DNA of 32,000 nt from Acaryochloris marina S15 (GTDB lineage Bacteria > Cyanobacteriota > Cyanobacteriia > Thermosynechococcales > Thermosynechococcaceae), in contig NZ_CP064923.1 in assembly GCF_018336915.1 (NCBI RefSeq), positions 3,540,001 through 3,572,000 on the forward strand, read 5' to 3'. Each line of letters begins with the position of its first letter. The stretch's first letter is position 1. Made by a program: the position numbers and the translations under genes. Below are positions 9,997-24,346 of this stretch, piece after piece. Below the pieces are notes generated by a model, which worked only from the letters and a program-made list of their open reading frames with translations, was not told the origin of the DNA and did no database searches.

Positions 9997-11805
9997 ATGC
10001 CCACTCCTTCTCACCCAGTCCAAGACCGTCGGGCCGCGATCAAAGCCCGAATCCAAACGAAGCAGCCCCATCGAGTTACTAATCAGCGATTACGCTTATT
10101 CCTGGTTTGGTTGGTGGTATTTGGAGGCATTGTGGGCTTGTTAGCCCGGTTAGTCTATTTGCAAATTAGTGCGGCCCCCTTTCTCCGAACGAAAGCCCAA
10201 CAACAACAGCTAGGCGGTCTTCCTGAGCGCACCTTCCGCTATCCGATTATGGATAGCCAGGGTAATCTACTGGCTAAGGATGAACCCGTCTTTCGTCTGT
10301 TTGCCCATCCCTTTTTATTCCAAAGACAACCGGATGAAATTGCTCAAGCATTAGCCCCTGTTCTCGACCGCTCATCGGATTCTCTGACAGAGCTATTCAA
10401 AACCGGAGAGAGTGGGATTCCAATTGGGTATCGTCTATCGGAAACCGAAGCAGAGAAAATCAACAATCTCTATTTAGATGGATTAGAAATTACGCGGGAA
10501 TGGCAACGGGTCTATCCCCAGTCGGGACTGACCTCGGGATTGGTCGGGTATGTCAATACCGAAAACCAAGGACAATCTGGCATTGAATATAGTCAGCAAC
10601 CCCTCTTAAAAGGAGATCCCATTCCCTTGCTAGTGACTCGGGATGGTCAGGGTAAGCTCTTGCCGGATCGATTTCCCTTAGAGCCGCTAAATGCCAATGA
10701 CTTGACCCTGAAGTTGACCCTAGATACGCGACTTCAACGGTCGGCCCGACAAGCCCTTCATAAACAAATGGCAAAGTTCCGAGCCAAGCGGGGCACTGTC
10801 ATTGTGATGGATGTCGAAGATGGCTCCCTCAAGGCTTTGGCCTCGGAACCCTCTTTTAATCCCCAGCGTTACTTTGAAGCCAATACTGAACTGTTTAAAA
10901 ACTGGGCCATTTCAGATCTTTATGAGCCGGGGTCTACCTTCAAGCCAATCAATATTGCCATCGCATTAGAATCCAATGCCATCAAAGCTGATAGTGTTTT
11001 CCACGATGGTGGTCAAATTACCATCGGTGGCTGGCCGATTAATAATGCCGACAACTCAGGCCATGGCAACCTTTCCATTACGGGCATCCTGGAATATTCC
11101 AGTAACGTAGGTATGGTCCATGTCATGCAGCGGATGGATCGATCGGCCTACTACAATTACCTGAAAAAAATTGGGATTGGCCAAATTACGGGTACTGATC
11201 TTCCCTTTGAAACCCCCGGCCAGTTTAAGGATAAGCAGCAGTTTTTAGACTATCCCATTGAAGCGGCAACCGCGGCTTTCGGACAAGGATTTTCAGTCAC
11301 CCCTCTACAAATGGCACAGCTCCATGCAGCCATCGCCAACGGAGGCGAATTGGTGACTCCTCATGTCGTTGATGGTCTATACAATCCTGCTGGCAAAAAA
11401 ACCAAGGGATTAAATCTGATTCAACCCCGCCGCATTTTCTCTAAAGATACGGTAGCTAAGGTTCGGACCATGATGGGAAGTGTGGTGCAAAACGGCACGG
11501 GTAAACCCGCCAAAATTCCGGGTTATCGCTTAGGGGGTAAAACTGGAACGGCCCAAAAAGCGGATAGCGGTACCTATAGCAATGCGCGGATTACTAGCTT
11601 TGTAGCATCTTTCCCCTTGGAGTCCCCTAAATATGTAGTGCTGGCCGTTGTAGATGAACCTCAAGGGGGCAATGCTTACGGATCGACCGTGGCAGCTCCA
11701 GCTGTAAAGTCGGTGTTAGAAACCCTGATTAGTATTGAGGGCATCCCTCCCAGTCATCCTGCTGAATTGAAGGCAAAGCCGAAAGCATCTCGCTCCAACA
11801 ACTAA
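9997..11805 (+). CDS. ftsI: Class B penicillin-binding protein / peptidoglycan D,D-transpeptidase FtsI
   Basis: It has an N-terminal TM anchor and the transpeptidase motifs STFK (SxxK), SSN (SxN) and KTGTA (KTG). It lies in a dcw-type context after rsmH. Confidence 0.9.
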   Translation: MPTPSHPVQDRRAAIKARIQTKQPHRVTNQRLRLFLVWLVVFGGIVGLLARLVYLQISAAPFLRTKAQQQQLGGLPERTFRYPIMDSQGNLLAKDEPVFRLFAHPFLFQRQPDEIAQALAPVLDRSSDSLTELFKTGESGIPIGYRLSETEAEKINNLYLDGLEITREWQRVYPQSGLTSGLVGYVNTENQGQSGIEYSQQPLLKGDPIPLLVTRDGQGKLLPDRFPLEPLNANDLTLKLTLDTRLQRSARQALHKQMAKFRAKRGTVIVMDVEDGSLKALASEPSFNPQRYFEANTELFKNWAISDLYEPGSTFKPINIAIALESNAIKADSVFHDGGQITIGGWPINNADNSGHGNLSITGILEYSSNVGMVHVMQRMDRSAYYNYLKKIGIGQITGTDLPFETPGQFKDKQQFLDYPIEAATAAFGQGFSVTPLQMAQLHAAIANGGELVTPHVVDGLYNPAGKKTKGLNLIQPRRIFSKDTVAKVRTMMGSVVQNGTGKPAKIPGYRLGGKTGTAQKADSGTYSNARITSFVASFPLESPKYVVLAVVDEPQGGNAYGSTVAAPAVKSVLETLISIEGIPPSHPAELKAKPKASRSNN

Positions 11806-12598: not shown

Positions 12599-12964
12599 AT
12601 GGCTGAGCGACCGATTAAGAAGTCTGAATTAGAAAAGCGTGCCCAGACTGAAGGCCAAACAGGCGATGACAAAAAACAAATTCAGAAGGGCCGTAAAGAT
12701 GGACGTGGAAAAGGTCGAAACAATAAAGACAGAGAAAAGAGAAAGCCTGCTGTTCCCCTAGCTTTGATGCGTGGTCCCAGGCCTTCAGCAAAGGTGGAAG
12801 AGCCCGAACCCGTGGAAACTCCAGAAGAAGCAATTGCAGAAACGACTACAGAAGAAGAAGGAGCCGTAGCTGAGGCCACAGAAACCGTCGCTGAAGCAGA
12901 AACCGACTCACCCAATGCCGACGCTAGTGAAGCCAGCGAGGCAGAACCAGCCCCTGATAATTAA
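12599..12964 (+). CDS. Hypothetical low-complexity protein with a basic N-terminal half and an acidic C-terminal half
   Basis: This is a 121-aa ORF with an ATG start. It has strong compositional bias (K/R/G, then E/A/T/P), and overlapping antisense ORFs arise from the same bias. No family is recognised, so coding status is uncertain. Confidence 0.4.
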   Translation: MAERPIKKSELEKRAQTEGQTGDDKKQIQKGRKDGRGKGRNNKDREKRKPAVPLALMRGPRPSAKVEEPEPVETPEEAIAETTTEEEGAVAEATETVAEAETDSPNADASEASEAEPAPDN

Positions 12965-14644: not shown

Positions 14645-15049
14645 GTGAAAAAGCGCGTTACTCTTACGTTCCCTCGGCGAGCCGTTCCTGTCCCAGTCAC
14701 CTATCGATTGGCAAAGGAGTTCAATGTGGCGGCAAACATTATTCGTGCCCAGGTTGCCCCAAATCAAATTGGTAAGTTGGTGGTGGAATTAGCGGGGGAT
14801 ATTGACCAGCTTGATGCCGCCATTGATTGGATGCTGTCTCAAAATATTGATGTGTCTTCGTCTAATCGCGAAATTCTGATTGATGAAGATAGCTGTGTTC
14901 ACTGCGGTTTATGTACAGGGATATGCCCCACCCAGGCCCTTACCCTTGACCCCAAATCTTTTTTGCTGAACTTCACTCGATCTCGCTGCATCGTCTGTGA
15001 ACAATGTGTTCCTACTTGTCCAGTACAGGCAATTTCTACTAACTTTTGA
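14645..15049 (+). CDS. NIL domain plus 2x[4Fe-4S] ferredoxin-type protein
   Basis: An N-terminal NIL-like domain (LTFPRRAVPVPVTYRLAKEFNVAANIIRAQV) is followed by two Cys clusters, CVHCGLCTGICP and CIVCEQCVPTCP. The start is GTG. Confidence 0.75.
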   Translation: MKKRVTLTFPRRAVPVPVTYRLAKEFNVAANIIRAQVAPNQIGKLVVELAGDIDQLDAAIDWMLSQNIDVSSSNREILIDEDSCVHCGLCTGICPTQALTLDPKSFLLNFTRSRCIVCEQCVPTCPVQAISTNF

Positions 15050-15063
15050 TGGATGGTTACTCT

Positions 15064-15831
15064 TTAAATCACTATCACCGAAACCATCGCTTTTAGGTAA
15101 GATAACCCCGCTGCCATCAAAACCCCTGAATACTCGCCGTTGGGTAAATGCTGGGGAAGTTGAATAGAAATACTAATTGAACCTGTTGCGTCGGATGCAA
15201 GGCTTAGAGGGTTAGGGGCAATAGAGATGGCCTGCTGAGAAATCAGATCGCCGTCACAACCATATAGATCGGTGCAAAAGAACTTGGCCTGAATGGGTTC
15301 TTCGCTATCATTGTGAACCTTAAATGCGATCTGGACTGTCTCTCCAACATGGCTGGGATGAGCCGACTGCAGTAAAGGGACACTAGCCTCGCTCGATGGT
15401 GCTTGTTCTGACACCCCTCCCGTCCAATCTGATTTGAGGGAGAGTAGATTAGCTAATTCATTCACAAACTCATGCATTTCCCCTACTAAGCCTGGAACAG
15501 AATAGCTGGTGGGTCCAGAGGGAGTCGTATTTCCTAGATCTAGAGGAGAGGCAATGGTCTGGGCTGACTGTAAGGGCGTCGTTAGATCGTTATCAAGGAT
15601 AGCAGCAGCTTGCTGTACAAGGGCTTCAGGAGTCGGTATTGTTTCAGTTCCGCCCATCATAGGCTGAATAACTTCTGCAACAGGTTCTGTGAGTGCTTCT
15701 GGTTCAGCAGGTAGCCCTCCCATTTCAGAGACGGTAGGAGGGAGAGTCCCAACTTGATCCAGAAGGCCACGGATCGATGCGGGTAGCCCTTGGTCGATGA
15801 GCTGGAGGGGTTTGCGTCGATACTGTTTCAT
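15064..15831 (-). CDS. Hypothetical protein with a disordered P/E/T-rich N-terminal half and a beta-rich C-terminal domain (last gene of the encapsulin cluster)
   Basis: The ATG has GAGGA about 9 nt upstream. It lies 38 nt downstream of the polyprenyl synthase gene on the same strand. The C-terminal ~95 aa show an alternating beta-strand pattern (VQIAFKVHN...ISISIQLP...GEYSGVL). No family is recognised. Confidence 0.6.
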   Translation of the reverse strand: MKQYRRKPLQLIDQGLPASIRGLLDQVGTLPPTVSEMGGLPAEPEALTEPVAEVIQPMMGGTETIPTPEALVQQAAAILDNDLTTPLQSAQTIASPLDLGNTTPSGPTSYSVPGLVGEMHEFVNELANLLSLKSDWTGGVSEQAPSSEASVPLLQSAHPSHVGETVQIAFKVHNDSEEPIQAKFFCTDLYGCDGDLISQQAISIAPNPLSLASDATGSISISIQLPQHLPNGEYSGVLMAAGLSYLKAMVSVIVI

Positions 15832-15869: not shown

Positions 15870-16922
15870 CTACAGATTGCGGCTAATCATATAGTGAATC
15901 AATTTGGGGATAAACGCTTTCTCTTCAGAGTCGGGGGCATCGCCATAGGCCACTGAGAATTCTGCTAAGGCTGCTTCGGCAAACTGATGGGCGACTGCGA
16001 TCGCATAGGCAATACTGCCATAATCCTGCATTCGTTGAATCACCCAGCTCACCTCATCTTCAGACCGTTCATCTCGAGGCTTGTCCATAAAGAATTGCAA
16101 CATATTTCGCTCCGAAGGGGTGCCCTGTTTAAATAGGTGCACTAACATCAACGTTCGCTTCCCCTCCCAAATATCGCCACCAATTTCTTTGCCATACCGT
16201 TGAGAATCCCCCACCAAATTAAGCACATCATCCTGAATCTGAAAGGCAGCCCCCATAAAGTATCCAAATTTATTGAACCGATCGAGGTCTAGGGTGTCCT
16301 TGGAGGCAATCAAGCCGCCAATCCGGCAGGGATGCATAAAGCTATACCAACAGGTTTTGTTCAAAATCATCTGCAGGTAGTCGGTCTCAGTGACATCACA
16401 GCGATTGTCCCGTACCCAGCCCAGTTCTGAAGCTTGCCCCTCCAGGGATTTCAACATCAAATGCTCAAATTCTTCATAGATCCGTTGGGTCAGTTGATGG
16501 CCCAGCAAGGGGATATTCTCCCGTACCAATCTCAGGCTTAAGGCATTCATGGCATCGCCAATATTAACGGCGATGGGCACCCCCTGCTCAGCCTGCATGG
16601 TGGGCATCCGATGACGACATTCACTGTTATCTTCCACATCATCATGAACTAGGAAAGCATTGTGAATCATTTCTAAGGCAACGGCTGATTTGAGAGACTG
16701 TTCTTCAGTTCCCCCAAAGGCCTGACAGGTCGCCATACACAAGGCGGGTCGCAATCCCTTACCCATATGAGAGAGATGTCTTTTTAACGGCTCATACAGA
16801 TAGCGTTGGGGTTCTCCCGTCGGAATCACAGCCAACAAAGCGGCCAAAGTCACGTCTCGGTAATGACCGAGATGGACCTGAAGGGTCTCTAGATCCTGAG
16901 GGGCAAGGGCAGCTAGGGGCAC
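15870..16922 (-). CDS. Polyprenyl diphosphate synthase family protein (trans-IPPS, GGPP synthase type-III-like)
   Basis: The first Asp-rich motif is FLVHDDVEDNSECRHRMPT and the second is FQIQDDVLNLVGD. GKGLRP, EGQASELGW and GKEIGGDIWEGKRTL are also present. The GTG start has AGAGG 7 nt upstream. Confidence 0.85.
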   Translation of the reverse strand: MPLAALAPQDLETLQVHLGHYRDVTLAALLAVIPTGEPQRYLYEPLKRHLSHMGKGLRPALCMATCQAFGGTEEQSLKSAVALEMIHNAFLVHDDVEDNSECRHRMPTMQAEQGVPIAVNIGDAMNALSLRLVRENIPLLGHQLTQRIYEEFEHLMLKSLEGQASELGWVRDNRCDVTETDYLQMILNKTCWYSFMHPCRIGGLIASKDTLDLDRFNKFGYFMGAAFQIQDDVLNLVGDSQRYGKEIGGDIWEGKRTLMLVHLFKQGTPSERNMLQFFMDKPRDERSEDEVSWVIQRMQDYGSIAYAIAVAHQFAEAALAEFSVAYGDAPDSEEKAFIPKLIHYMISRNL

Positions 16923-16959: not shown

Positions 16960-18939
16960 TCACTCAGGAATGATGCGGACTTTTCCAGAGCGCGGCTGAG
17001 CAGGAGAGGGTTGGGGGTGTTCTGATAATGTTTGGAGAGTAGCTAAGTTAGGGATTGTTTCAGGCATAGTTTGGGACTCGGCCATCCGCACCACAATATC
17101 TAACACCGACTTTTGCACCACTTCCATCAGCTCTTGCCGCAATTCAACGTTGTCAAATCCTTGAGTGCCGACTGCATAAAGGGGGTTACCTAATTTTTCT
17201 AGGGGCTGATCAATGGTGACTCCTAACAACTGTTCTAGAATGCGGCCTCCTTGGTGGGCCAGTCTGAGAACCGATAACCCCCATCGCACCAAACTGTCAT
17301 CCCAGGGTAAGCCCTGATGAAATCGAATGCGATCGATCACTCGCCAAGGTTCAAAAATTTCTTGCTCATGCAGTTTCCAAGTCTTGCACGGGGGAACATC
17401 TGCTTTTGCAGCAGCAATAATGCCATTGACAGCCCGACGGGCCGCTTCATTGGCTCCTTCCATCGTCGCTAGATCCGTATAGGTGCGGACGTAATCAGAA
17501 GCGAGAAACAGATTGGGAATATCCGTCACGGCATCAGGGCGCTTCGACCAAGTATTAATTAAATTGACTAGGAGTGGTTCTTCATTCGTGTCTCCTTCCC
17601 CTTCTACGAGATAAATGGCGGGATCCAAAAACCAATGGTCTAAAAATTCGTCTTTGAGAATTTCTTGACCGTGGATATTGATACTCTTTTTGAGTTGTGC
17701 CCAGACCTCATTTTTGACTTCTTCCCGGGTACATTCCTTGGCAGTTTTACCGTTGAGACCTGGTTCATCCCACTCGGAGATATCAACAGAGATGATGCCT
17801 TTAATTCGGCCATCCGCATACTGATTAAAATCAACCCCAGGCCAGAACTGTCGTTGGGAAATGGACGTGAGCGCCCAGGGAGAATCCACATAAATCGCAT
17901 GACCATGGGACAGGGGCACATCCTCTGTTAAATACAGTTGGATGCCATTCATCCAGGACACCCCGCCTTCACTGAGCTGATGGAGCTTGCCTAATTCTGG
18001 ATCCGCCGTTTTAATACTGTCGGTAACCAGCTCCGCCATGCGTTCGATCGGGACTGCAGCAATGTAATAGTCCCCTTGGGCCTGAAAGGTTTGTCCCTCT
18101 GTTTCAATCGTGACCCCCTGAATCAGGCCATTTACACAGTCAATGGCTAAGACCTTGGCCTCCAGATGATATTGCACCCCTTGTTGAATTAAGTAGGCCA
18201 GCCAAGGATTGATCCAGGCATCGTTGGTGGGTGCATTGAGCACGCGATCGCTACTCGGTCCCGGCTCTACTAAATCAAACAGGAGCTGGACAAAAATATC
18301 ACCAATCGTTTTGGTACTCGCCAGGTGGGCTTTTGCTGCGACCAAGGAGCGAGTAATGCCATGACCAAAAATTTTCTGATAGGCCGGGGAACGATGGTCT
18401 GCTTCTACAAACTCCCACCAGTCTTCTTTCTCATACTCCGCTAAGCGCCGTTCTTCACAGGAGGTAATGATTTGCCAGACCTTGGTGCCGAAAAACGCAA
18501 TTTCTTCGGGAGAAACTCCAAAGTCAGGTCCAAAGATGGTTGGAAACTCATTGAGAATTTCCTGGACATCTGAAAAGGTGCGAGGAGAGCGGGATGGAAA
18601 CACAATGGGACGCTGACCATAGCGAGCCATTTCGACCCGCGTAGTATCGACCAAATTATCGGCAACGGTTTTGTCTTTCCCGTAAGGAATCCGCGCCATT
18701 GTATCGACAATATGCTTGTAGAAGCGGGGGAAAAATCGGAAGCCATGTTCCCCAGGTAGTGGCTTCCGAGGGCCATTGGGTCCCATGCCCCCTGTATTGG
18801 GCACAGGAATACTGCGGGCCTTACCCCCCGGAATCTTCTTGGCTTCGTATACTTCTACGGCAAACCCTCGTTCAATCAGCTCATGGGCGGCACTCAGTCC
18901 GGCAACGCCGCCACCAAGGATCACAACCTTCTTTTGCAT
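16960..18939 (-). CDS. FAD-dependent oxidoreductase, amine oxidase / phytoene desaturase superfamily, with a 146-aa C-terminal extension
   Basis: The N-terminal dinucleotide fold is VVILGGGVAGLSAAHELIERGFAVEVYEAKKIPGGKA. The C-terminal FAD motif is FLASDYVRTYTDLATMEGANEAARRAV. After that, 146 further residues end in a Pro-rich linker and GKVRIIPE. The ATG has AGGAAA upstream. Confidence 0.85.
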   Translation of the reverse strand: MQKKVVILGGGVAGLSAAHELIERGFAVEVYEAKKIPGGKARSIPVPNTGGMGPNGPRKPLPGEHGFRFFPRFYKHIVDTMARIPYGKDKTVADNLVDTTRVEMARYGQRPIVFPSRSPRTFSDVQEILNEFPTIFGPDFGVSPEEIAFFGTKVWQIITSCEERRLAEYEKEDWWEFVEADHRSPAYQKIFGHGITRSLVAAKAHLASTKTIGDIFVQLLFDLVEPGPSSDRVLNAPTNDAWINPWLAYLIQQGVQYHLEAKVLAIDCVNGLIQGVTIETEGQTFQAQGDYYIAAVPIERMAELVTDSIKTADPELGKLHQLSEGGVSWMNGIQLYLTEDVPLSHGHAIYVDSPWALTSISQRQFWPGVDFNQYADGRIKGIISVDISEWDEPGLNGKTAKECTREEVKNEVWAQLKKSINIHGQEILKDEFLDHWFLDPAIYLVEGEGDTNEEPLLVNLINTWSKRPDAVTDIPNLFLASDYVRTYTDLATMEGANEAARRAVNGIIAAAKADVPPCKTWKLHEQEIFEPWRVIDRIRFHQGLPWDDSLVRWGLSVLRLAHQGGRILEQLLGVTIDQPLEKLGNPLYAVGTQGFDNVELRQELMEVVQKSVLDIVVRMAESQTMPETIPNLATLQTLSEHPQPSPAQPRSGKVRIIPE

Positions 18940-18987
18940 GATGTTTCCTGTCTAGCTATGAGGGAGGATGGGGATCAAAATTTGGGC

Positions 18988-19866
18988 TTAGGACAAAGAA
19001 AAGGCACTCACGGCACCTTCTTCCTTCACTCTCAGCACAAATTTCTCATAGACTCGGAACAGATATCTCGCCTCGTTATTGACATTTAAAAATTGCACGG
19101 TGGGGGAAGTGGCCACGACTAAATCAATGGGATCACCCGCTAAAGAAACGACCACAACTTGATAATCTTGTAATGTACTGGAACGTAAGAGCTGTGTACC
19201 TAACAAAGGCTCAATGCGATCTTTGGGTAGCACAAGAGAGTCATTTGGGGTATTTGCCTCAACAAACGCACCTTGACCTAGGATGCAAGCAAACGGACCC
19301 AGATGCCCACTTGACTCAAGGTTTGCGATCGCACCCGCAATATTAATAACAAGCCGCTCACCCGTAGAACCCGAAATTGGATCATATGACGATCTATCCA
19401 CAAGCCCATCTGCTTGTTGACCGCCCTTCACTCTACACAAAATGGGGCTTCTAGCAACCTTCAATTGTTGATTGGTTGGGTCAGCCTGAGGTAGGCCATT
19501 AAAAATGATTGCATCTTCTGAACGTGCTAATAAATTAGCTGCTCGCCGAAATACAGAAATTGCACCGATTAAATTCTCTTCAGCTAGCTGACGCTGTTTC
19601 AGCTCAATGTAAACAGACAACGTCCAAAGCCTTAGCGTATCAATATCGTCAACTTTAATAGGATCTAGTACTAGATCCTCGGATATGGGATCTTCTTCAG
19701 GTTCAACTTCAATTAGTGTTTGGCTGCGAACCACAGTGGCACTTTGTTCAAGGGGACCGCAACAAGCTAGAAATGATCCCGCAACACTAACCTTACTCAC
19801 CTCATCAGCAACAAGCTGTTGTATCTGATTCCACTGCTCAGAAGTCCAGTCAATTTGAGAGCTCAT
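18988..19866 (-). CDS. Encapsulin nanocompartment shell protein (family-1-like, Linocin_M18 / HK97 fold)
   Basis: This 292-aa protein is collinear with what I recall of T. maritima encapsulin and M. xanthus EncA. N-terminal WTSEQWNQIQQLV matches LTEKQWQEIDNRA. EDAIIFNG matches EDEVIFRG/EDELIFYG. SGHLGPFACILG matches QGHFGPYAVVLS. DLVVA...ARYLFRVYEKFVLRVKEEGAV matches DLAVS...HPFRVLEALLLRIKHPDAI. Confidence 0.8.
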   Translation of the reverse strand: MSSQIDWTSEQWNQIQQLVADEVSKVSVAGSFLACCGPLEQSATVVRSQTLIEVEPEEDPISEDLVLDPIKVDDIDTLRLWTLSVYIELKQRQLAEENLIGAISVFRRAANLLARSEDAIIFNGLPQADPTNQQLKVARSPILCRVKGGQQADGLVDRSSYDPISGSTGERLVINIAGAIANLESSGHLGPFACILGQGAFVEANTPNDSLVLPKDRIEPLLGTQLLRSSTLQDYQVVVVSLAGDPIDLVVATSPTVQFLNVNNEARYLFRVYEKFVLRVKEEGAVSAFSLS

Positions 19867-19993: not shown

Positions 19994-20878
19994 CTAGAGG
20001 GCATACAAATCATAAATTACGAGTAAATCTGACATTTGCACTTCCCCAATTCCGATGCACTGGAGTCGATTTAGCCATTTATACTTTGGATGCTCAGTTA
20101 AGAATCGAGGGGTTACTCTCAGTGGAGGGGCATTGAGCCATTGTTGCTTAAGGAAATTTTGATATCCCTTTTGTCCTAATTCAAAAACCCCTGAATATCT
20201 TGTTTGAATCAGGGCTCCATCAACCGTTTGAAGTGTGGCATAAGCCCCTACAATACCGATTCCATCATGACGAATAGTCATATGGTCTCCCCCTTGTGGA
20301 CCAAAAATGGCATTTAACTTTGGACCATTCACCTGTCCTGCCTTGATGGACCAGTTGACCTTCAAGCCCTCCGGAGTTTCTCCAATAATTTCAGGAGGCT
20401 CTTGTAACTGAACTTGCACAGTAGCAAGATAATTTAAATTACATGGGAATCGATGAAACTGCGATGACTTACTGGTTGGAGTTTTTGATGTGGATTGAGG
20501 AGTAGTTAATGACGATGGCAAATCATTGATAACAAAGGAGGAAGGAAATTGCTGCGTGTTGCAAACATTGGGTACTTGCCGTCCTGCACAAGATAGGGTT
20601 ACCAAATACTCTACTTTTTGGGGTTCCAATAATGACAGGAAATGAACTGAGAAGTATTGCTTTGCAGCGACATAATCAGAGTGGCGAAGTACACCAGCAG
20701 TGGATTGAACCAGTCTATTTTTATTTGAACGATAATAGACGGTAACCTTATTTGCCGGATGTAGTGGATAAACCCCAACTGTAATAGAGATGCCTTGCCT
20801 AGTTGCTATAAAGCTCTCAGATGCTGGAGCATCCTCCGTTCCATACCAAAGCTTTAACCCATCCTGGCAAACTTCCAT
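19994..20878 (-). CDS. Two-domain protein: N-terminal beta-rich domain of unknown function, S/T/P linker, C-terminal DUF3237 (UPF0311) domain
   Basis: The C-terminal half matches the DUF3237 pattern I recall: GQVNGPKL...GPQGGDHMTIRHDG...LQTVDGALIQTRYSG...RVTPRFLTEHPKYKWLNRLQCIGIG...LVIYDLYAL. The linker is LPSSLTTPQSTSKTPTSKSS. The ATG lies 9 nt after the upstream gene's stop. Confidence 0.75.
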   Translation of the reverse strand: MEVCQDGLKLWYGTEDAPASESFIATRQGISITVGVYPLHPANKVTVYYRSNKNRLVQSTAGVLRHSDYVAAKQYFSVHFLSLLEPQKVEYLVTLSCAGRQVPNVCNTQQFPSSFVINDLPSSLTTPQSTSKTPTSKSSQFHRFPCNLNYLATVQVQLQEPPEIIGETPEGLKVNWSIKAGQVNGPKLNAIFGPQGGDHMTIRHDGIGIVGAYATLQTVDGALIQTRYSGVFELGQKGYQNFLKQQWLNAPPLRVTPRFLTEHPKYKWLNRLQCIGIGEVQMSDLLVIYDLYAL

Positions 20879-20887
20879 GAGAACCTA

Positions 20888-23800
20888 TCATCCCTCTAAA
20901 GAGACAGAGCTTTCTAATTCATCTAGAAAAATACGGACTTGACTAAGGTCAGGCGTACCCAAGCTTTCCGTAAACCGATTATAAATTTCGGAGGTACATT
21001 CCCGAGCTGCGTTCACGCTACCCTGGGAAAGCCAAAAACGACCTAGGCCAAGAACAGCTCTAAGTTCCAACATGATCGAATTTTGTTTACGGGCAAGGGA
21101 TGTGGCTTTTTTAAAGCAGTCTTTCACGATGCTGACATCAGAAGCCTTGAGTATGGGTTGAGTTTGACTGAATTGTTGCCATAAAAACTCAGCTTTCAAA
21201 CGATATAACTCAGGCTCCATATGATGCTCATTCCGAGTTGTCGCCTCTTGAATTCCTGCTTCTAATGCTTGAAAGGCTTCCTCAAAACGCTCAGACAACC
21301 AATAAACCTCCGCCAACATCCCCATAACTTGTGGAAAAATAACTGAAGTTCCAGTGTTCTTAAATAACTCCAACCCTTCGATCATTTCCTGCAGACCATC
21401 TTGAGTTTTCCCTTGCCAAGCAATTGACCATCCATGAAAGAGCATCGCCACAGGAATCCACAATAGAAACCCTTCTGTGCGGGAGATATCCAGTAATTCT
21501 GCTGATTTTTCTTCAACTAAGGGCAAGTTACGAGTCAGATGATACTGATGCAAGCTAGCACCTAAGGCATAAGCTTTATTGGGAAGGTGGTTCAGGTTTT
21601 GGGCAAGTTCCATAGCAGTTTCTACCTGTTTGGGCAACTCATCTGGATAGCCCAACATCCAAAGGCTGCCTGCCAGAAACATGTGTATACATACTGCGGA
21701 AGAAAGCTGGGTTTCAAATACTAAATGTTGCTCTGCTTCAAACTCAAATCTGGTTAACCCTTCATTAGCGACCTCTCTGGCATCAACATATTCACCCCGA
21801 TAAAACTGGGTATAGCCCACTGCATGGCAAGCCATCTCATGCATGATCGGTTGATCAGCGAGTTGAGCTCTCTGCCATACTTCTCCTCCAGCCTCAAGGG
21901 CTTCATCCATTTGGCCACGGAGAAAGTAATTCGTCCACAGTCCCCATAAAGCCTTAGATTGACTTTGCTGGTCTTCAGTTTTTAGGCTGAGTACCTTTGC
22001 GCGAAGACAGGTTTGTTCAACTTCTACAGACGCCCAACCTTTAATCGCCATAAAGGCGGGAGCAAGGCAAAGCTGTATCTTCAGTTCCAATCCATCTCGT
22101 TCGTTGTTATCAGAAAGACCGTCAAGTAATTCAAGCCCTCGTATCAGATGTGCGATCGCTTCCGAATTCGCGGCTTGCTCTAAATCTCGTTGTCCAGCCT
22201 GTAACCAATATTGGATGGCAATATGCAGAAGCCCCGCTTCCGTGAAGTGATAGGCCAACAGCTCTGGGCGAATTGTTCCTTGATCATCCCTGCGTCGCTC
22301 CAGGGTATAGGCAATGCGCTGATGGTAAGCTTGCCGACGTATTTTCACTAAAGATTGGTAAGCCGCATCCTGGATCAGTGCATGTTTAAATTGATACTTA
22401 GCAAAAGGGGGAGACCCTTCTTGATAGAGGAGTCCCGATTCAACCAGTTGATTCAGACCATTGCGTAGAGTGGCTTGATTCCACTGAGACACCTCTTCTA
22501 ACAATTCATAGTCAAATTCACGTCCTAAGGTCGAGCCGAGTTGAGCCACTTCCTTCACAACAGACAGACGATCCAGGCGCTCAATCAAAGAGTCATGCAA
22601 CGTTGTCGGAATTGCCAGCGCGACATTGTCATCACTAGAACGGTTTAAGGCAGGGCTTTCATTAACATCTGCTTCTAGAACCGTTTTCGTCAATTCCTCC
22701 ACAAATAGGGGAATGCCATCTGTTTTCTGCACAATTTGTTGGACAAGGGACTGGGGCAGGGATTTCTCCTGAGCCGTTTGCTCAACCATCACCTGAATTT
22801 CTTCCCGTCCTAGGCTATCGAGCTTCAAAGAGTGAAGGTGAGGATAAGTATGCCAAGACGACGTAAATTCAGGACGACAGGTTAATAAAATGAGTAAGCG
22901 ATGATCTCGAATATGATCCAAAAAATAAGTAATGGCATCGAGGGTCGAAGCATCCATCCAATGGAGATCTTCAATCACCAGTAAGACAGGCTGTTGCTTC
23001 GCTAACGCCAAACAAACTGCTGTCATTGCCTCAATTGTTTGTTGTTTTTGCCGCTCAGGGGTCAAGTTTAACGGCGGATACTGTTCTTCAAAGGGAACGG
23101 CCAGTAAACTTGCAAATAAAGGGGCATATTCTCCTTGAGGCAAGGAACATTGCCCCATGAATTGTTCAATTTTTTCTAATTTCTCAGCAGATGTATCATC
23201 CTGAGAAAAGTTAAATGTAGCTTGCTTTAAAAATTCAGTAATGGGGTAGAAGGCACTATTACGATAGTACGGTGAACCTTGAATCTCAGTGAGCCATACG
23301 TCTTGGTTTTGAGCAACATTTTTTTTGATCTCCCAAACTAACCTAGACTTTCCCATCCCTGCTTCTCCTTGCAGCAGAACCGCACGGGTATGACCAGCAA
23401 TAGATTCTTGCCACCGTTCAGACAACAGTGCTGTTTCAGCAACTCGATTAACAAAAGGAGTTAACCCCGACTTTTCAGCAACAGCAAACCTGCTTTTGGC
23501 TTTACTTTCCTTAAGAACCTGAAAAATCACGATGGGATCTGAAATCCCTTTCAGTTTTTGTTGTTCCAATTGCTGGCATTCAAAAAACCCTTTCACTAGA
23601 CGTTGGGTTGCAGCACTAATGATGACTGTATTGGGTTGGGCCAGGGACTGTAAGCGAGCCGCTATGTTGGGTGTTGCCCCCACAATGGCCATGGGATCAG
23701 GTGCATTCTTCACCCCCATTTCGCCAATCACAACCAATCCAGTGTGAATTCCAATACGGACCGAAAGACGCTCTCCCCACTTTTTCATGATTTTGGGATT

Positions 23801-24346
23801 GAGTCTTTGCAGGGATTCTAATATCCGTAGACCACTGCTAACGGCTCTCCTGGCATCATCTTCATGGGCCCGAGGGTAGCCAAAATAGATTAGGACCCCA
23901 TCGCCTAAGTACCGGGCGATGTATCCTTCAGCATTCGAAATTGCCTTAGCACAGAGTTCCTGATAGGCCAAAAAAACATCCCGGAGATCTTCAGGATCAA
24001 GTCTTTCTGCTAAAGGCGACGACTCTACCAAATCGCAAAACATCACGGTTAATTGCCGTCGTTCTGTTTCCCGACTCCACCCATCCTCAGATGGAGTATT
24101 TATATTTGTTTTCAGCTTGTGAGTATGATTTTTATGTAAGGAAATTTGATGAGCTTCTAGAGTCTGAGCGACCAGTACTTCTTGATTGCGATCAACTGCA
24201 ATTTTTAGAACATCGATAATCTCATATTTTATGTCTTCTAAATATTGCTCATCAATGCCAAATTGTCGCTTAATCGCTCTGTAAGAAACTTGACCTCGAC
24301 GATGCAAAATCTCAATTATTTGTTCTAGAATCTCTTCAAAACTCAT
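20888..24346 (-). CDS. Multidomain signalling protein: class III adenylate/guanylate cyclase domain, AAA/STAND P-loop ATPase and C-terminal TPR-like repeats
   Basis: Cyclase motifs are present: LTVMFCDLVESS, YLGDGVLIYFGYP, VRIGIHTGLVVIGEMG, GATPNIAARLQS. The P-loop is LLQGEAGMGKSRLV and Walker B is VLLVIEDLHWMD. A long helical-repeat C-terminus follows. The N-terminal ~50 aa (ILEQIIEILHRRGQVSYRAIKRQFGIDEQYLEDIK) is typical of this architecture. Confidence 0.85.
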   Translation of the reverse strand: MSFEEILEQIIEILHRRGQVSYRAIKRQFGIDEQYLEDIKYEIIDVLKIAVDRNQEVLVAQTLEAHQISLHKNHTHKLKTNINTPSEDGWSRETERRQLTVMFCDLVESSPLAERLDPEDLRDVFLAYQELCAKAISNAEGYIARYLGDGVLIYFGYPRAHEDDARRAVSSGLRILESLQRLNPKIMKKWGERLSVRIGIHTGLVVIGEMGVKNAPDPMAIVGATPNIAARLQSLAQPNTVIISAATQRLVKGFFECQQLEQQKLKGISDPIVIFQVLKESKAKSRFAVAEKSGLTPFVNRVAETALLSERWQESIAGHTRAVLLQGEAGMGKSRLVWEIKKNVAQNQDVWLTEIQGSPYYRNSAFYPITEFLKQATFNFSQDDTSAEKLEKIEQFMGQCSLPQGEYAPLFASLLAVPFEEQYPPLNLTPERQKQQTIEAMTAVCLALAKQQPVLLVIEDLHWMDASTLDAITYFLDHIRDHRLLILLTCRPEFTSSWHTYPHLHSLKLDSLGREEIQVMVEQTAQEKSLPQSLVQQIVQKTDGIPLFVEELTKTVLEADVNESPALNRSSDDNVALAIPTTLHDSLIERLDRLSVVKEVAQLGSTLGREFDYELLEEVSQWNQATLRNGLNQLVESGLLYQEGSPPFAKYQFKHALIQDAAYQSLVKIRRQAYHQRIAYTLERRRDDQGTIRPELLAYHFTEAGLLHIAIQYWLQAGQRDLEQAANSEAIAHLIRGLELLDGLSDNNERDGLELKIQLCLAPAFMAIKGWASVEVEQTCLRAKVLSLKTEDQQSQSKALWGLWTNYFLRGQMDEALEAGGEVWQRAQLADQPIMHEMACHAVGYTQFYRGEYVDAREVANEGLTRFEFEAEQHLVFETQLSSAVCIHMFLAGSLWMLGYPDELPKQVETAMELAQNLNHLPNKAYALGASLHQYHLTRNLPLVEEKSAELLDISRTEGFLLWIPVAMLFHGWSIAWQGKTQDGLQEMIEGLELFKNTGTSVIFPQVMGMLAEVYWLSERFEEAFQALEAGIQEATTRNEHHMEPELYRLKAEFLWQQFSQTQPILKASDVSIVKDCFKKATSLARKQNSIMLELRAVLGLGRFWLSQGSVNAARECTSEIYNRFTESLGTPDLSQVRIFLDELESSVSLEG

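Follow-up and report, generated by a model that had tools for sequence, protein, structure and literature searches.

Encapsulins are understood through the cargo which they carry. The encapsulin cargo of Thermotoga maritima, for example, has the targeting peptide GGDLGIRKL. The loading signal of this cargo has been described as a C-terminal stretch of 8 residues (PMC8610991). A fourth, 'New', capsid cluster was defined by Giessen and Silver (bioRxiv 10.1101/085266, 2016; Nat Microbiol 2017), the members of which are located in gene clusters together with lipid/isoprenoid genes and a P-loop NTPase. Shells of this cluster from Acaryochloris marina, Methylocapsa acidiphila and Geodermatophilaceae form capsids of 35–37 nm in E. 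coli (35 nm in case of A. marina), and neither a cargo nor a targeting peptide was named for the cluster in that study (10.1101/085266). In a census from 2021, 90 Family-1 systems are unassigned and no flavoprotein cargo is listed (PMC8346489). Here we describe a locus of Acaryochloris marina S15, contained in a stretch of 32,000 nucleotides which we call the window (contig NZ_CP064923.1, positions 3,540,001–3,572,000), where the gene of a flavoprotein lies directly downstream of an encapsulin shell gene. We suggest that the neighbouring Family-1-type encapsulin probably has this flavoprotein as its dedicated cargo and that the C-terminal tail of the flavoprotein probably represents a targeting peptide of a new kind.

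The two genes and the parts of the flavoprotein are located as follows (FAD, flavin adenine dinucleotide; AF2, AlphaFold2; pLDDT, predicted local distance difference test score; ORF, open reading frame):

16960..18939, minus strand: flavoprotein gene, 659 aa, proposed cargo (ORF; Pfam Amino_oxidase at residues 12–508 and NAD_binding_8; AF2 model with a mean pLDDT of 79.8; fold match to 5MOG)
17401..18939, minus strand: FAD/amine-oxidase (phytoene-desaturase-like) catalytic domain, residues 1–513 (mean column consensus 0.77)
17239..17400, minus strand: residues 514–567, helical C-terminal element common to the whole enzyme subfamily and not shell-specific (alignment, AF2)
16999..17238, minus strand: residues 568–647, variable tether with a low-confidence helix at 598–622 and then a Pro/Ser/Ala-rich linker (AF2, alignment)
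16963..16998, minus strand: residues 648–659, QPRSGKVRIIPE, proposed targeting peptide (core RSGKVRIIP at 16966–16992)
18940..18987, minus strand: 48-nt spacer between the shell and the flavoprotein gene, with an AGGA ribosome-binding-like site (sequence)
18988..19866, minus strand: divergent Family-1 encapsulin shell protein, 292 aa, probable member of the 'New' capsid cluster (Pfam Linocin_M18, AF2, PDB fold matches)

The last FAD motif of the flavoprotein, TMEGANEAARRAVNGIIAA, comprises residues 492–510, and the Pfam Amino_oxidase match stops at residue 508. The initial annotation had placed an extension of 146 amino acids behind this motif, at 16960–17400 and with the extreme C-terminus GKVRIIPE, and both its coordinates and its sequence are exact: the extension consists of residues 514–659 (16963–17400) followed by the stop codon, and the last 12 codons read QPRSGKVRIIPE. 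By aligning the window protein with homologues of 54–97% identity and by inspecting its AF2 model we could show that the extension is composed of three different parts. The first part, residues 514–567, shows nearly the same degree of conservation as the catalytic domain (consensus 0.73 vs 0.77) and carries the motif CxxWxLHEPxxxxPWRxxDxxRYxxGLPWD (C518...W546), in which the columns C518, W521, L523, R533, D536, R539, G543, L544, and W546 are invariant. In the AF2 model, confident helices at 527–541 and 549–572 pack on the FAD domain. The same element is also present in shell-less relatives, which end just past GLPWDGK. Thus, the claim that the extension is no standard domain of the subfamily fails for residues 514–567 and stands for the remainder, which is specific to the shell-linked clade and predicted to be disordered; the true appendage of the flavoprotein amounts to only ∼95 residues, the rest of the extension being standard for the subfamily.

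Within this appendage, the conservation is distributed very unevenly. For residues 568–647 the consensus is 0.40, dropping to 0.21, and indels are so frequent that 88 residues occupy 147 alignment columns. The AF2 model has a pLDDT below 50 across residues 568–659 next to a confident catalytic body. In an alignment of 77 sequences, G652 (94%), V654 (94%), and I656 (92%) are conserved, and the 25 columns before the tail (residues 623–647) have an average consensus of 21%. Over 121 sequences, namely the window protein and its 120 best homologues, the tail follows the consensus R-[TAS]-[RG]-[SR]-G-[KR]-V-[RQEH]-I-[ILV]-[PS]-[RQK], which ends one to three residues from the C-terminus. Within the final 12 residues, 92 of these 121 proteins carry the motif G[RK]V.I[ILV], which does not occur once in their remaining 78,230 residues, and therefore the tail is conserved far beyond chance. 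Acaryochloris sp. CCMEE 5410 has exactly the same tail (RSGKVRIIPE), and its linker differs from that of the window by indels. At the C-terminus of the other ORFs of the 32-kb window the motif does not occur, and a search of the other module proteins (DUF3237 protein, polyprenyl synthase, and a 255-aa protein, see below) for a conserved terminal peptide revealed none.

The identification of the neighbouring gene as a shell gene is borne out by several analyses. The protein matches Pfam Linocin_M18 with 76 bits (cut-off 24.3, E = 3.5e-21), its AF2 model has a pLDDT of 92.5, and the top 50 PDB fold matches of the model are all Family-1 encapsulin shells with a template modelling (TM) score of ∼0.8. 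The closest of them are the larger T=3/T=4 types from Bacillus methanolicus, Myxococcus xanthus (EncA), and Quasibacillus thermotolerans, with ∼20% identity. By sequence the protein reaches at most 29 bits to any solved shell, and with 75 bits it stays below the cut-off of 100 of the NCBIfam model encap_f1. Judging from the predicted structure, the gene appears to encode a real though divergent Family-1 encapsulin fold. The closest named relatives are Acaryochloris encapsulins with 69% identity, A. marina proteins among them, and the locus of Acaryochloris sp. CCMEE 5410 is syntenic with the window gene for gene. Because of this identity and this synteny, we infer that the shell and its gene neighbourhood are those of the 'New' cluster. 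The distance of 48 nucleotides between both genes is also correct as originally given: the stop codon TAA of the shell gene is located at 18988–18990 and the ATG of the flavoprotein gene on the same strand at 18939, with AGGA ∼8 nucleotides upstream of the ATG.

In order to compare shell, tail, and module across genomes, GTDB was scanned at one genome per species with the flavoprotein alignment. This yielded 80 loci, which were taken with 8-kb flanks and whose six-frame ORFs were searched with a shell hidden Markov model (HMM) and with the window proteins. Four further loci were added, that is, the one of Acaryochloris sp. CCMEE 5410 and three distant tail-bearing metagenomic homologues. A shell is present in 28 of the 80 loci, which stem from six phyla (Cyanobacteriota, Armatimonadota, Pseudomonadota, Actinomycetota, Myxococcota, and Nitrospirota). 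All 28 also contain the polyprenyl synthase and a cyclase-STAND protein, and 26 contain the DUF3237 protein, which was undetected in L020, where the module is frameshifted, and in L047. The shell-linked loci comprise 14 with an intact unfused flavoprotein gene, 11 with a flavoprotein–synthase fusion, and three in which the flavoprotein gene is apparently frameshifted.

The initial annotation had raised the question whether the tail is found only beside a shell, and the comparison answers it in the affirmative. All 14 shell-linked loci with an intact unfused gene encode a long flavoprotein with the tether and a basic-hydrophobic tail. The tails read GKVHIIP, GRVRILPQ, GRVELIPH, GN[VI]RFVE (e.g. 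GNVRFVER), GRLRIVQKP, and RRGRIVPL as well as LRRLR[ILV]V (e.g. LRRLRLVR), RRRIRITQKA, and KTRVIITQKG, and their form (GxVxI[IL]P, LRRLRxV, or RRIRIT) varies in step with the shell clades. Fifty-one loci, for example from Paenibacillus, Bacteroidota, and Acidobacteriota, have no shell, synthase, or DUF3237 gene within 8 kb; none of their flavoproteins carries the tail, and the proteins end just past GLPWD (∼residue 550) or in hydrophobic or amphipathic helices. In the one remaining locus, L015, the tail is present without a shell hit; this locus belongs to the shell clade, and its contig breaks off precisely at the point at which a shell gene would be expected. Shell DNA is adjacent in all three distant metagenomic homologues. 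For two of them an apparent absence of the shell had to be rejected, as the shell HMM finds frameshifted shell DNA among the six-frame ORFs. In these two loci (L084, 8966–10104, and L085, 5050–5974, both from assembly ERZ25039504) the shell genes are split over two to three frames and were not gene-called, which could be due to sequencing error or to true pseudogenes.

Several observations weigh against our reading. A tree built from the catalytic domain places every shell-linked flavoprotein in a single clade, within which the fusions form one subclade, which argues that tail and shell were gained together once. For this reason the Fisher p of 3e-6 for the co-occurrence of tail and shell overstates independence and is not a count of independent events. 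The tail co-occurs with shell, synthase, and DUF3237 as a block and not with the shell alone, and therefore the phyletic pattern does not single out its partner. The tail also fails the canonical Family-1 consensus (SDGSLGIGSLKRS, DGSLGTIGSLKGE, or TVGSL), and the tether of ∼80–90 residues is longer than in most described cargos. Finally, the fused subclade retains the shell gene and has lost the terminal tail. At the place homologous to the tail the fusion linkers hold a weak remnant (RKGSVYVPAP, KAGSAYVRTP, and LRRALVEAP; cf. LRRLRIVAAP in L011), the pattern of which, RR..[YFL][VI]..P, is no better conserved than its surroundings, and a search of all ORFs of the fused loci did not find the tail motif on any other protein. 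The real evidence is long-term purifying selection on the tail beside an unconstrained tether, in proteins that are only ∼50% identical.

Nevertheless, we prefer the targeting-peptide reading for the following reasons. A folded enzyme, followed by a disordered tether and a conserved terminal peptide and encoded beside a shell gene, is the signature of Family-1 cargos. Moreover, the module offers no other candidate for a loading signal than the tail, the variants of which track the shell clades. The tail also shares the Gly-x-hydrophobic-x-hydrophobic pattern and the basic residues with known targeting peptides. Thus, of the proposal that GKVRI fits the Family-1 core, the general pattern holds and the match to the canonical consensus does not.

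The rival that survives best states that the tail docks onto another protein of the module, most plausibly the polyprenyl synthase or else the DUF3237 protein, and so tethers consecutive enzymes, the shell being loaded otherwise or indirectly. The tail co-occurs with the synthase as strictly as with the shell and almost so with DUF3237 (26 of 28 shell-linked loci), and it is lost exactly where the flavoprotein is fused to the synthase, as would be expected if the fusion had made a docking peptide redundant. As the fused subclade kept its shell and lost the terminal tail, this explanation gains real weight. In this subclade (L024, L026, L035, L037, L038, L040, L046, L047, L050, L054, and L058, with the flavoprotein match starting at ∼8000 in each of these 11 loci) in-frame fusions of the flavoprotein with the polyprenyl synthase give proteins of ∼985–1060 aa in one monophyletic group, and a linker with better conservation (SPLLDQVRPLLEQVAPF...ALD) takes the place of the disordered tether. 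Bradyrhizobium sp. STM 3557 and Variovorax saccharolyticus are examples of this subclade. On the contrary, we know of no precedent for a C-terminal peptide that docks onto trans-prenyl synthases, whereas the layout found here is the rule for Family-1 cargos, and this is a further reason to favour targeting to the shell. In addition, the fused linkers still hold the basic-hydrophobic-Pro remnant at the homologous place, and the luminal N-terminal helix of the shell shows no relaxed conservation in the fused subclade, an observation which by itself is uninformative. A candidate shell-targeting peptide is not seen on any of the other module proteins, so that docking onto the synthase would leave the shell without a recognisable cargo signal. 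On balance, we regard the docking explanation as improbable, although it deserves to be taken seriously.

A second rival holds that the tail serves membrane or lipid association, degradation, regulation, or autoinhibition and that the flavoprotein works outside the shell. C-terminal localisation signals are a theme in this enzyme family, in that many shell-less relatives end in anchor-like helices, and the substrates are presumably lipophilic. However, the tail has too few residues to serve as a membrane anchor, it is strongly basic and lacks the character of an amphipathic helix, it comes after a disordered tether, it is restricted to the clade with the shell module, and its form changes in step with the shell clades; we therefore consider such a function decidedly unlikely. 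The third rival, that the extension is an ordinary part of the oxidoreductase subfamily and the resemblance of its tail coincidental, is true of the structured and subfamily-wide residues 514–567, shell-less relatives included, and is otherwise largely refuted, since the ∼95 remaining residues are absent from 51 of 51 shell-less loci and the motif is 92–94% conserved beside a linker of 21% consensus among proteins 50–60% identical overall, and we give it hardly any credence.

Hydrophobic or amphipathic flavoprotein C-termini that resemble monotopic membrane anchors, such as ...WWMWVFLPIWLGCCILLFPFRLIAKLFQ and ...LTKFLKKIAQLFK, are found in the shell-less relatives of L014, L022, L025, L033, L048, L049, L057, L065, L067, L069, L073, L075, and L078. 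That so many shell-less relatives end in this way suggests that in the shell-linked clade a membrane anchor was swapped for the tether and tail.

If the tail is a targeting peptide, the system might be organized as follows. The body of the flavoprotein (residues 1–567) is connected by a flexible tether of ∼80 residues to a peptide of 9–12 residues, R-S-G-[KR]-V-R-I-[ILV]-P. In analogy to the solved Family-1 systems, this peptide would lie extended in a luminal groove of the shell protomer, with V654, I656, and I657 in hydrophobic pockets and the flanking Arg and Lys residues forming salt bridges. The flavoprotein would be captured during shell assembly. Enclosed in the lumen or attached to the inner wall by its tether, it would then act on an isoprenoid made by the co-encoded synthase, either by oxidation or by desaturation. 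Binding of the tail to the shell, encapsulation, and this chemistry are thus predictions of the model.

The remaining genes of the module are all encoded on the same strand:

15064..15831, minus strand: 255-aa protein, recurrent module member (no Pfam or NCBIfam match)
15870..16922, minus strand: short-chain polyprenyl diphosphate synthase, 350 aa (Pfam polyprenyl_synt, 200 bits)
19994..20878, minus strand: DUF3237 protein, constant module member (Pfam DUF3237 at residues 147–293)
20888..24346, minus strand: nucleotide cyclase–AAA_16 (STAND P-loop NTPase)–TPR protein, 1152 aa, called cyclase-STAND protein here (Pfam Guanylate_cyc, AAA_16, and NB-ARC)

The flavoprotein has the FAD-binding Rossmann motif GGGVAGLSAA at residues 9–18, and its best fold match in the PDB is the rice phytoene desaturase 5MOG (TM 0.79, 16% identity); by sequence no solved structure was matched beyond the dinucleotide-binding motif. 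An identity as HpnE, phytoene desaturase (PDS), zeta-carotene desaturase (ZDS), CrtI, or CrtD was rejected because every NCBIfam equivalog score is far under its cut-off (HpnE 82 vs 283, PDS 33 vs 569, and zeta-carotene desaturase 43 vs 622). For the synthase, the best NCBIfam models are IdsA, the family-2 encapsulin cargo polyprenyl transferase, and geranylgeranyl diphosphate synthase, all of them below their cut-offs; the second-best hit is the family-2 cargo polyprenyl transferase NF041169 with 185 bits against a cut-off of 450. The synthase has no terminal extension, both of its termini belonging to the fold. As flavoprotein and synthase are naturally fused in 11 genomes, it can be argued that both act consecutively. 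Thus, the flavoprotein may oxidise or desaturate a prenyl compound made by the co-encoded synthase.

The cyclase-STAND protein, the cyclase of which is of class III, is probably the P-loop NTPase mentioned by Giessen and Silver. A full-length cyclase-STAND gene is also found directly upstream of tail-less and shell-less flavoprotein genes in L005, L010, L030, and L043. This protein was therefore rejected as partner of the tail, and its pairing with the flavoenzyme must be older and wider than the association with the encapsulin. A reading of the module as an anti-phage defence system was considered and rejected, as PADLOC returns generic cyclase-domain (PycC) hits only.

The N-terminal half of the DUF3237 protein (residues 1–146) is unannotated and has the conserved start motif DGL.LWYGT.DAPAP. 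Several DUF3237 proteins of the fused subclade have a short extra C-terminus ...V[QTE]VGG[RA][RK]..., which is faintly like the targeting peptide TVGSL[RK]. Homologues of the 255-aa protein were found in L001, L006, L008, L011, L036, L081, L083, L084, and L085, where some of them are domains within larger proteins. Conservation is seen in the C-terminal part (...G.YSG[LV][IL]QA.G..Y.KA[VM]L...), and homologues are located at 11023–11784 in L081, 5284–6108 in L006, 4885–5550 in L008, 4691–5545 in L011, 9198–11273 in L083, and 11088–13262 in L003. The gene lies up- or downstream of the shell gene; in some genomes it is part of proteins of ∼640–715 aa, and in L029 it is fused to DUF3237. A role of the 255-aa protein as an accessory of the shell or as a further cargo is conceivable.

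Comparing the window with the locus of Acaryochloris sp. CCMEE 5410 (window 14645–15831 vs L081 11023–14147), an insertion of a 135-aa ORF and two DDE transposase genes of the ISAZ013 family is found in the latter, separating the 253-aa module gene from the NIL/4Fe-4S ferredoxin gene. The remaining neighbourhood of ∼25 kb is syntenic and includes a GAF-PAS histidine kinase, CobA/BtuR, and an M16 peptidase. Elsewhere in the window, a 121-aa ORF at 12599–12964 on the plus strand encodes a highly charged low-complexity protein rich in Lys, Glu, Ala, and Thr.

The shells of the 'New' cluster are known to assemble since 2016/17 and have no cargo named in the searchable literature. The cargo searches of Giessen and Silver used the canonical consensus SDGSLGIGSLKRS, which the tail does not match, and this would explain why no cargo has been reported for the cluster; divergent targeting peptides escape cargo searches that are based on a consensus. 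Full-text literature searches, with subscription-only papers outside their reach, did not find a paper that assigns a flavoprotein cargo to the 'New' cluster. Thus, relative to the searchable literature, both the cargo class and the variant of the targeting peptide are new for a known orphan group of shells. Going further, the module may represent a widespread and hitherto unassigned type of encapsulin organelle which serves isoprenoid chemistry and not the handling of iron or peroxide, present in six phyla, with its own peptide class (RSG[KR]VRI[ILV]P and clade variants), a flavoenzyme working in series with a synthase, a cyclase-STAND companion, and another mode of loading in the fused subclade; this wider picture we put forward only tentatively, as its chances fall somewhat short of even. 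If it is true that the flavoprotein is the cargo, the few natural cargos listed for Family 1 would be joined by a flavin-dependent isoprenoid enzyme, a second and possibly orthogonal targeting tag of 8–12 residues would become available for the engineering of nanoreactors, and there would be a second, independent case of isoprenoid chemistry in a protein shell besides the terpene cyclases of Family 2B. With a defined cargo and a loading peptide of 8–12 residues the system is directly testable.

Three described systems are close enough for comparison. With the plant and cyanobacterial PDS and the CrtI/HpnE superfamily, the flavoprotein has the FAD Rossmann and substrate-domain fold in common, whereas the operon in the window contains no phytoene or squalene synthase. 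In the Family-2B encapsulins, which carry terpene cyclase or polyprenyl transferase cargo and are linked to 2-methylisoborneol and geosmin (PMC11550324, PMC8346489), isoprenoid enzymes are likewise combined with a shell of the HK97 fold. However, the window shell is of the Linocin_M18 type and lacks the insertion binding cyclic nucleotide monophosphates, and Family-2 cargos are loaded via long disordered terminal domains in contrast to the short terminal peptide found here. The synthase was also rejected as a polyprenyl-transferase cargo of the family-2 type, as its NF041169 score is far below the cut-off, as it has no disordered terminal domain, and as the shell does not belong to Family 2. 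The third group comprises the classical Family-1 systems with DyP, ferritin-like, IMEF, or hemerythrin cargos. The window shares with them the HK97-fold Linocin_M18 shell of ∼280–300 aa, a cargo gene (a proposed one in the window) in the same operon, and the construction of the cargo from a body, a flexible linker, and a short peptide at the C-terminus which has hydrophobic residues in alternating positions and is flanked by basic ones. Yet the proposed cargo is a 73-kDa phytoene-desaturase-like flavoenzyme and not a peroxidase or di-iron protein, and its peptide is of the type RSG[KR]VRI[ILV]P instead of SDGSLGIGSLKRS or TVGSL. In contrast to the classical systems, the tether is much longer, the flavoprotein gene lies downstream of the shell gene, sometimes with the DUF3237 gene in between, and the DUF3237 protein, the synthase, the 255-aa protein, and the cyclase-STAND protein are constant accessories.

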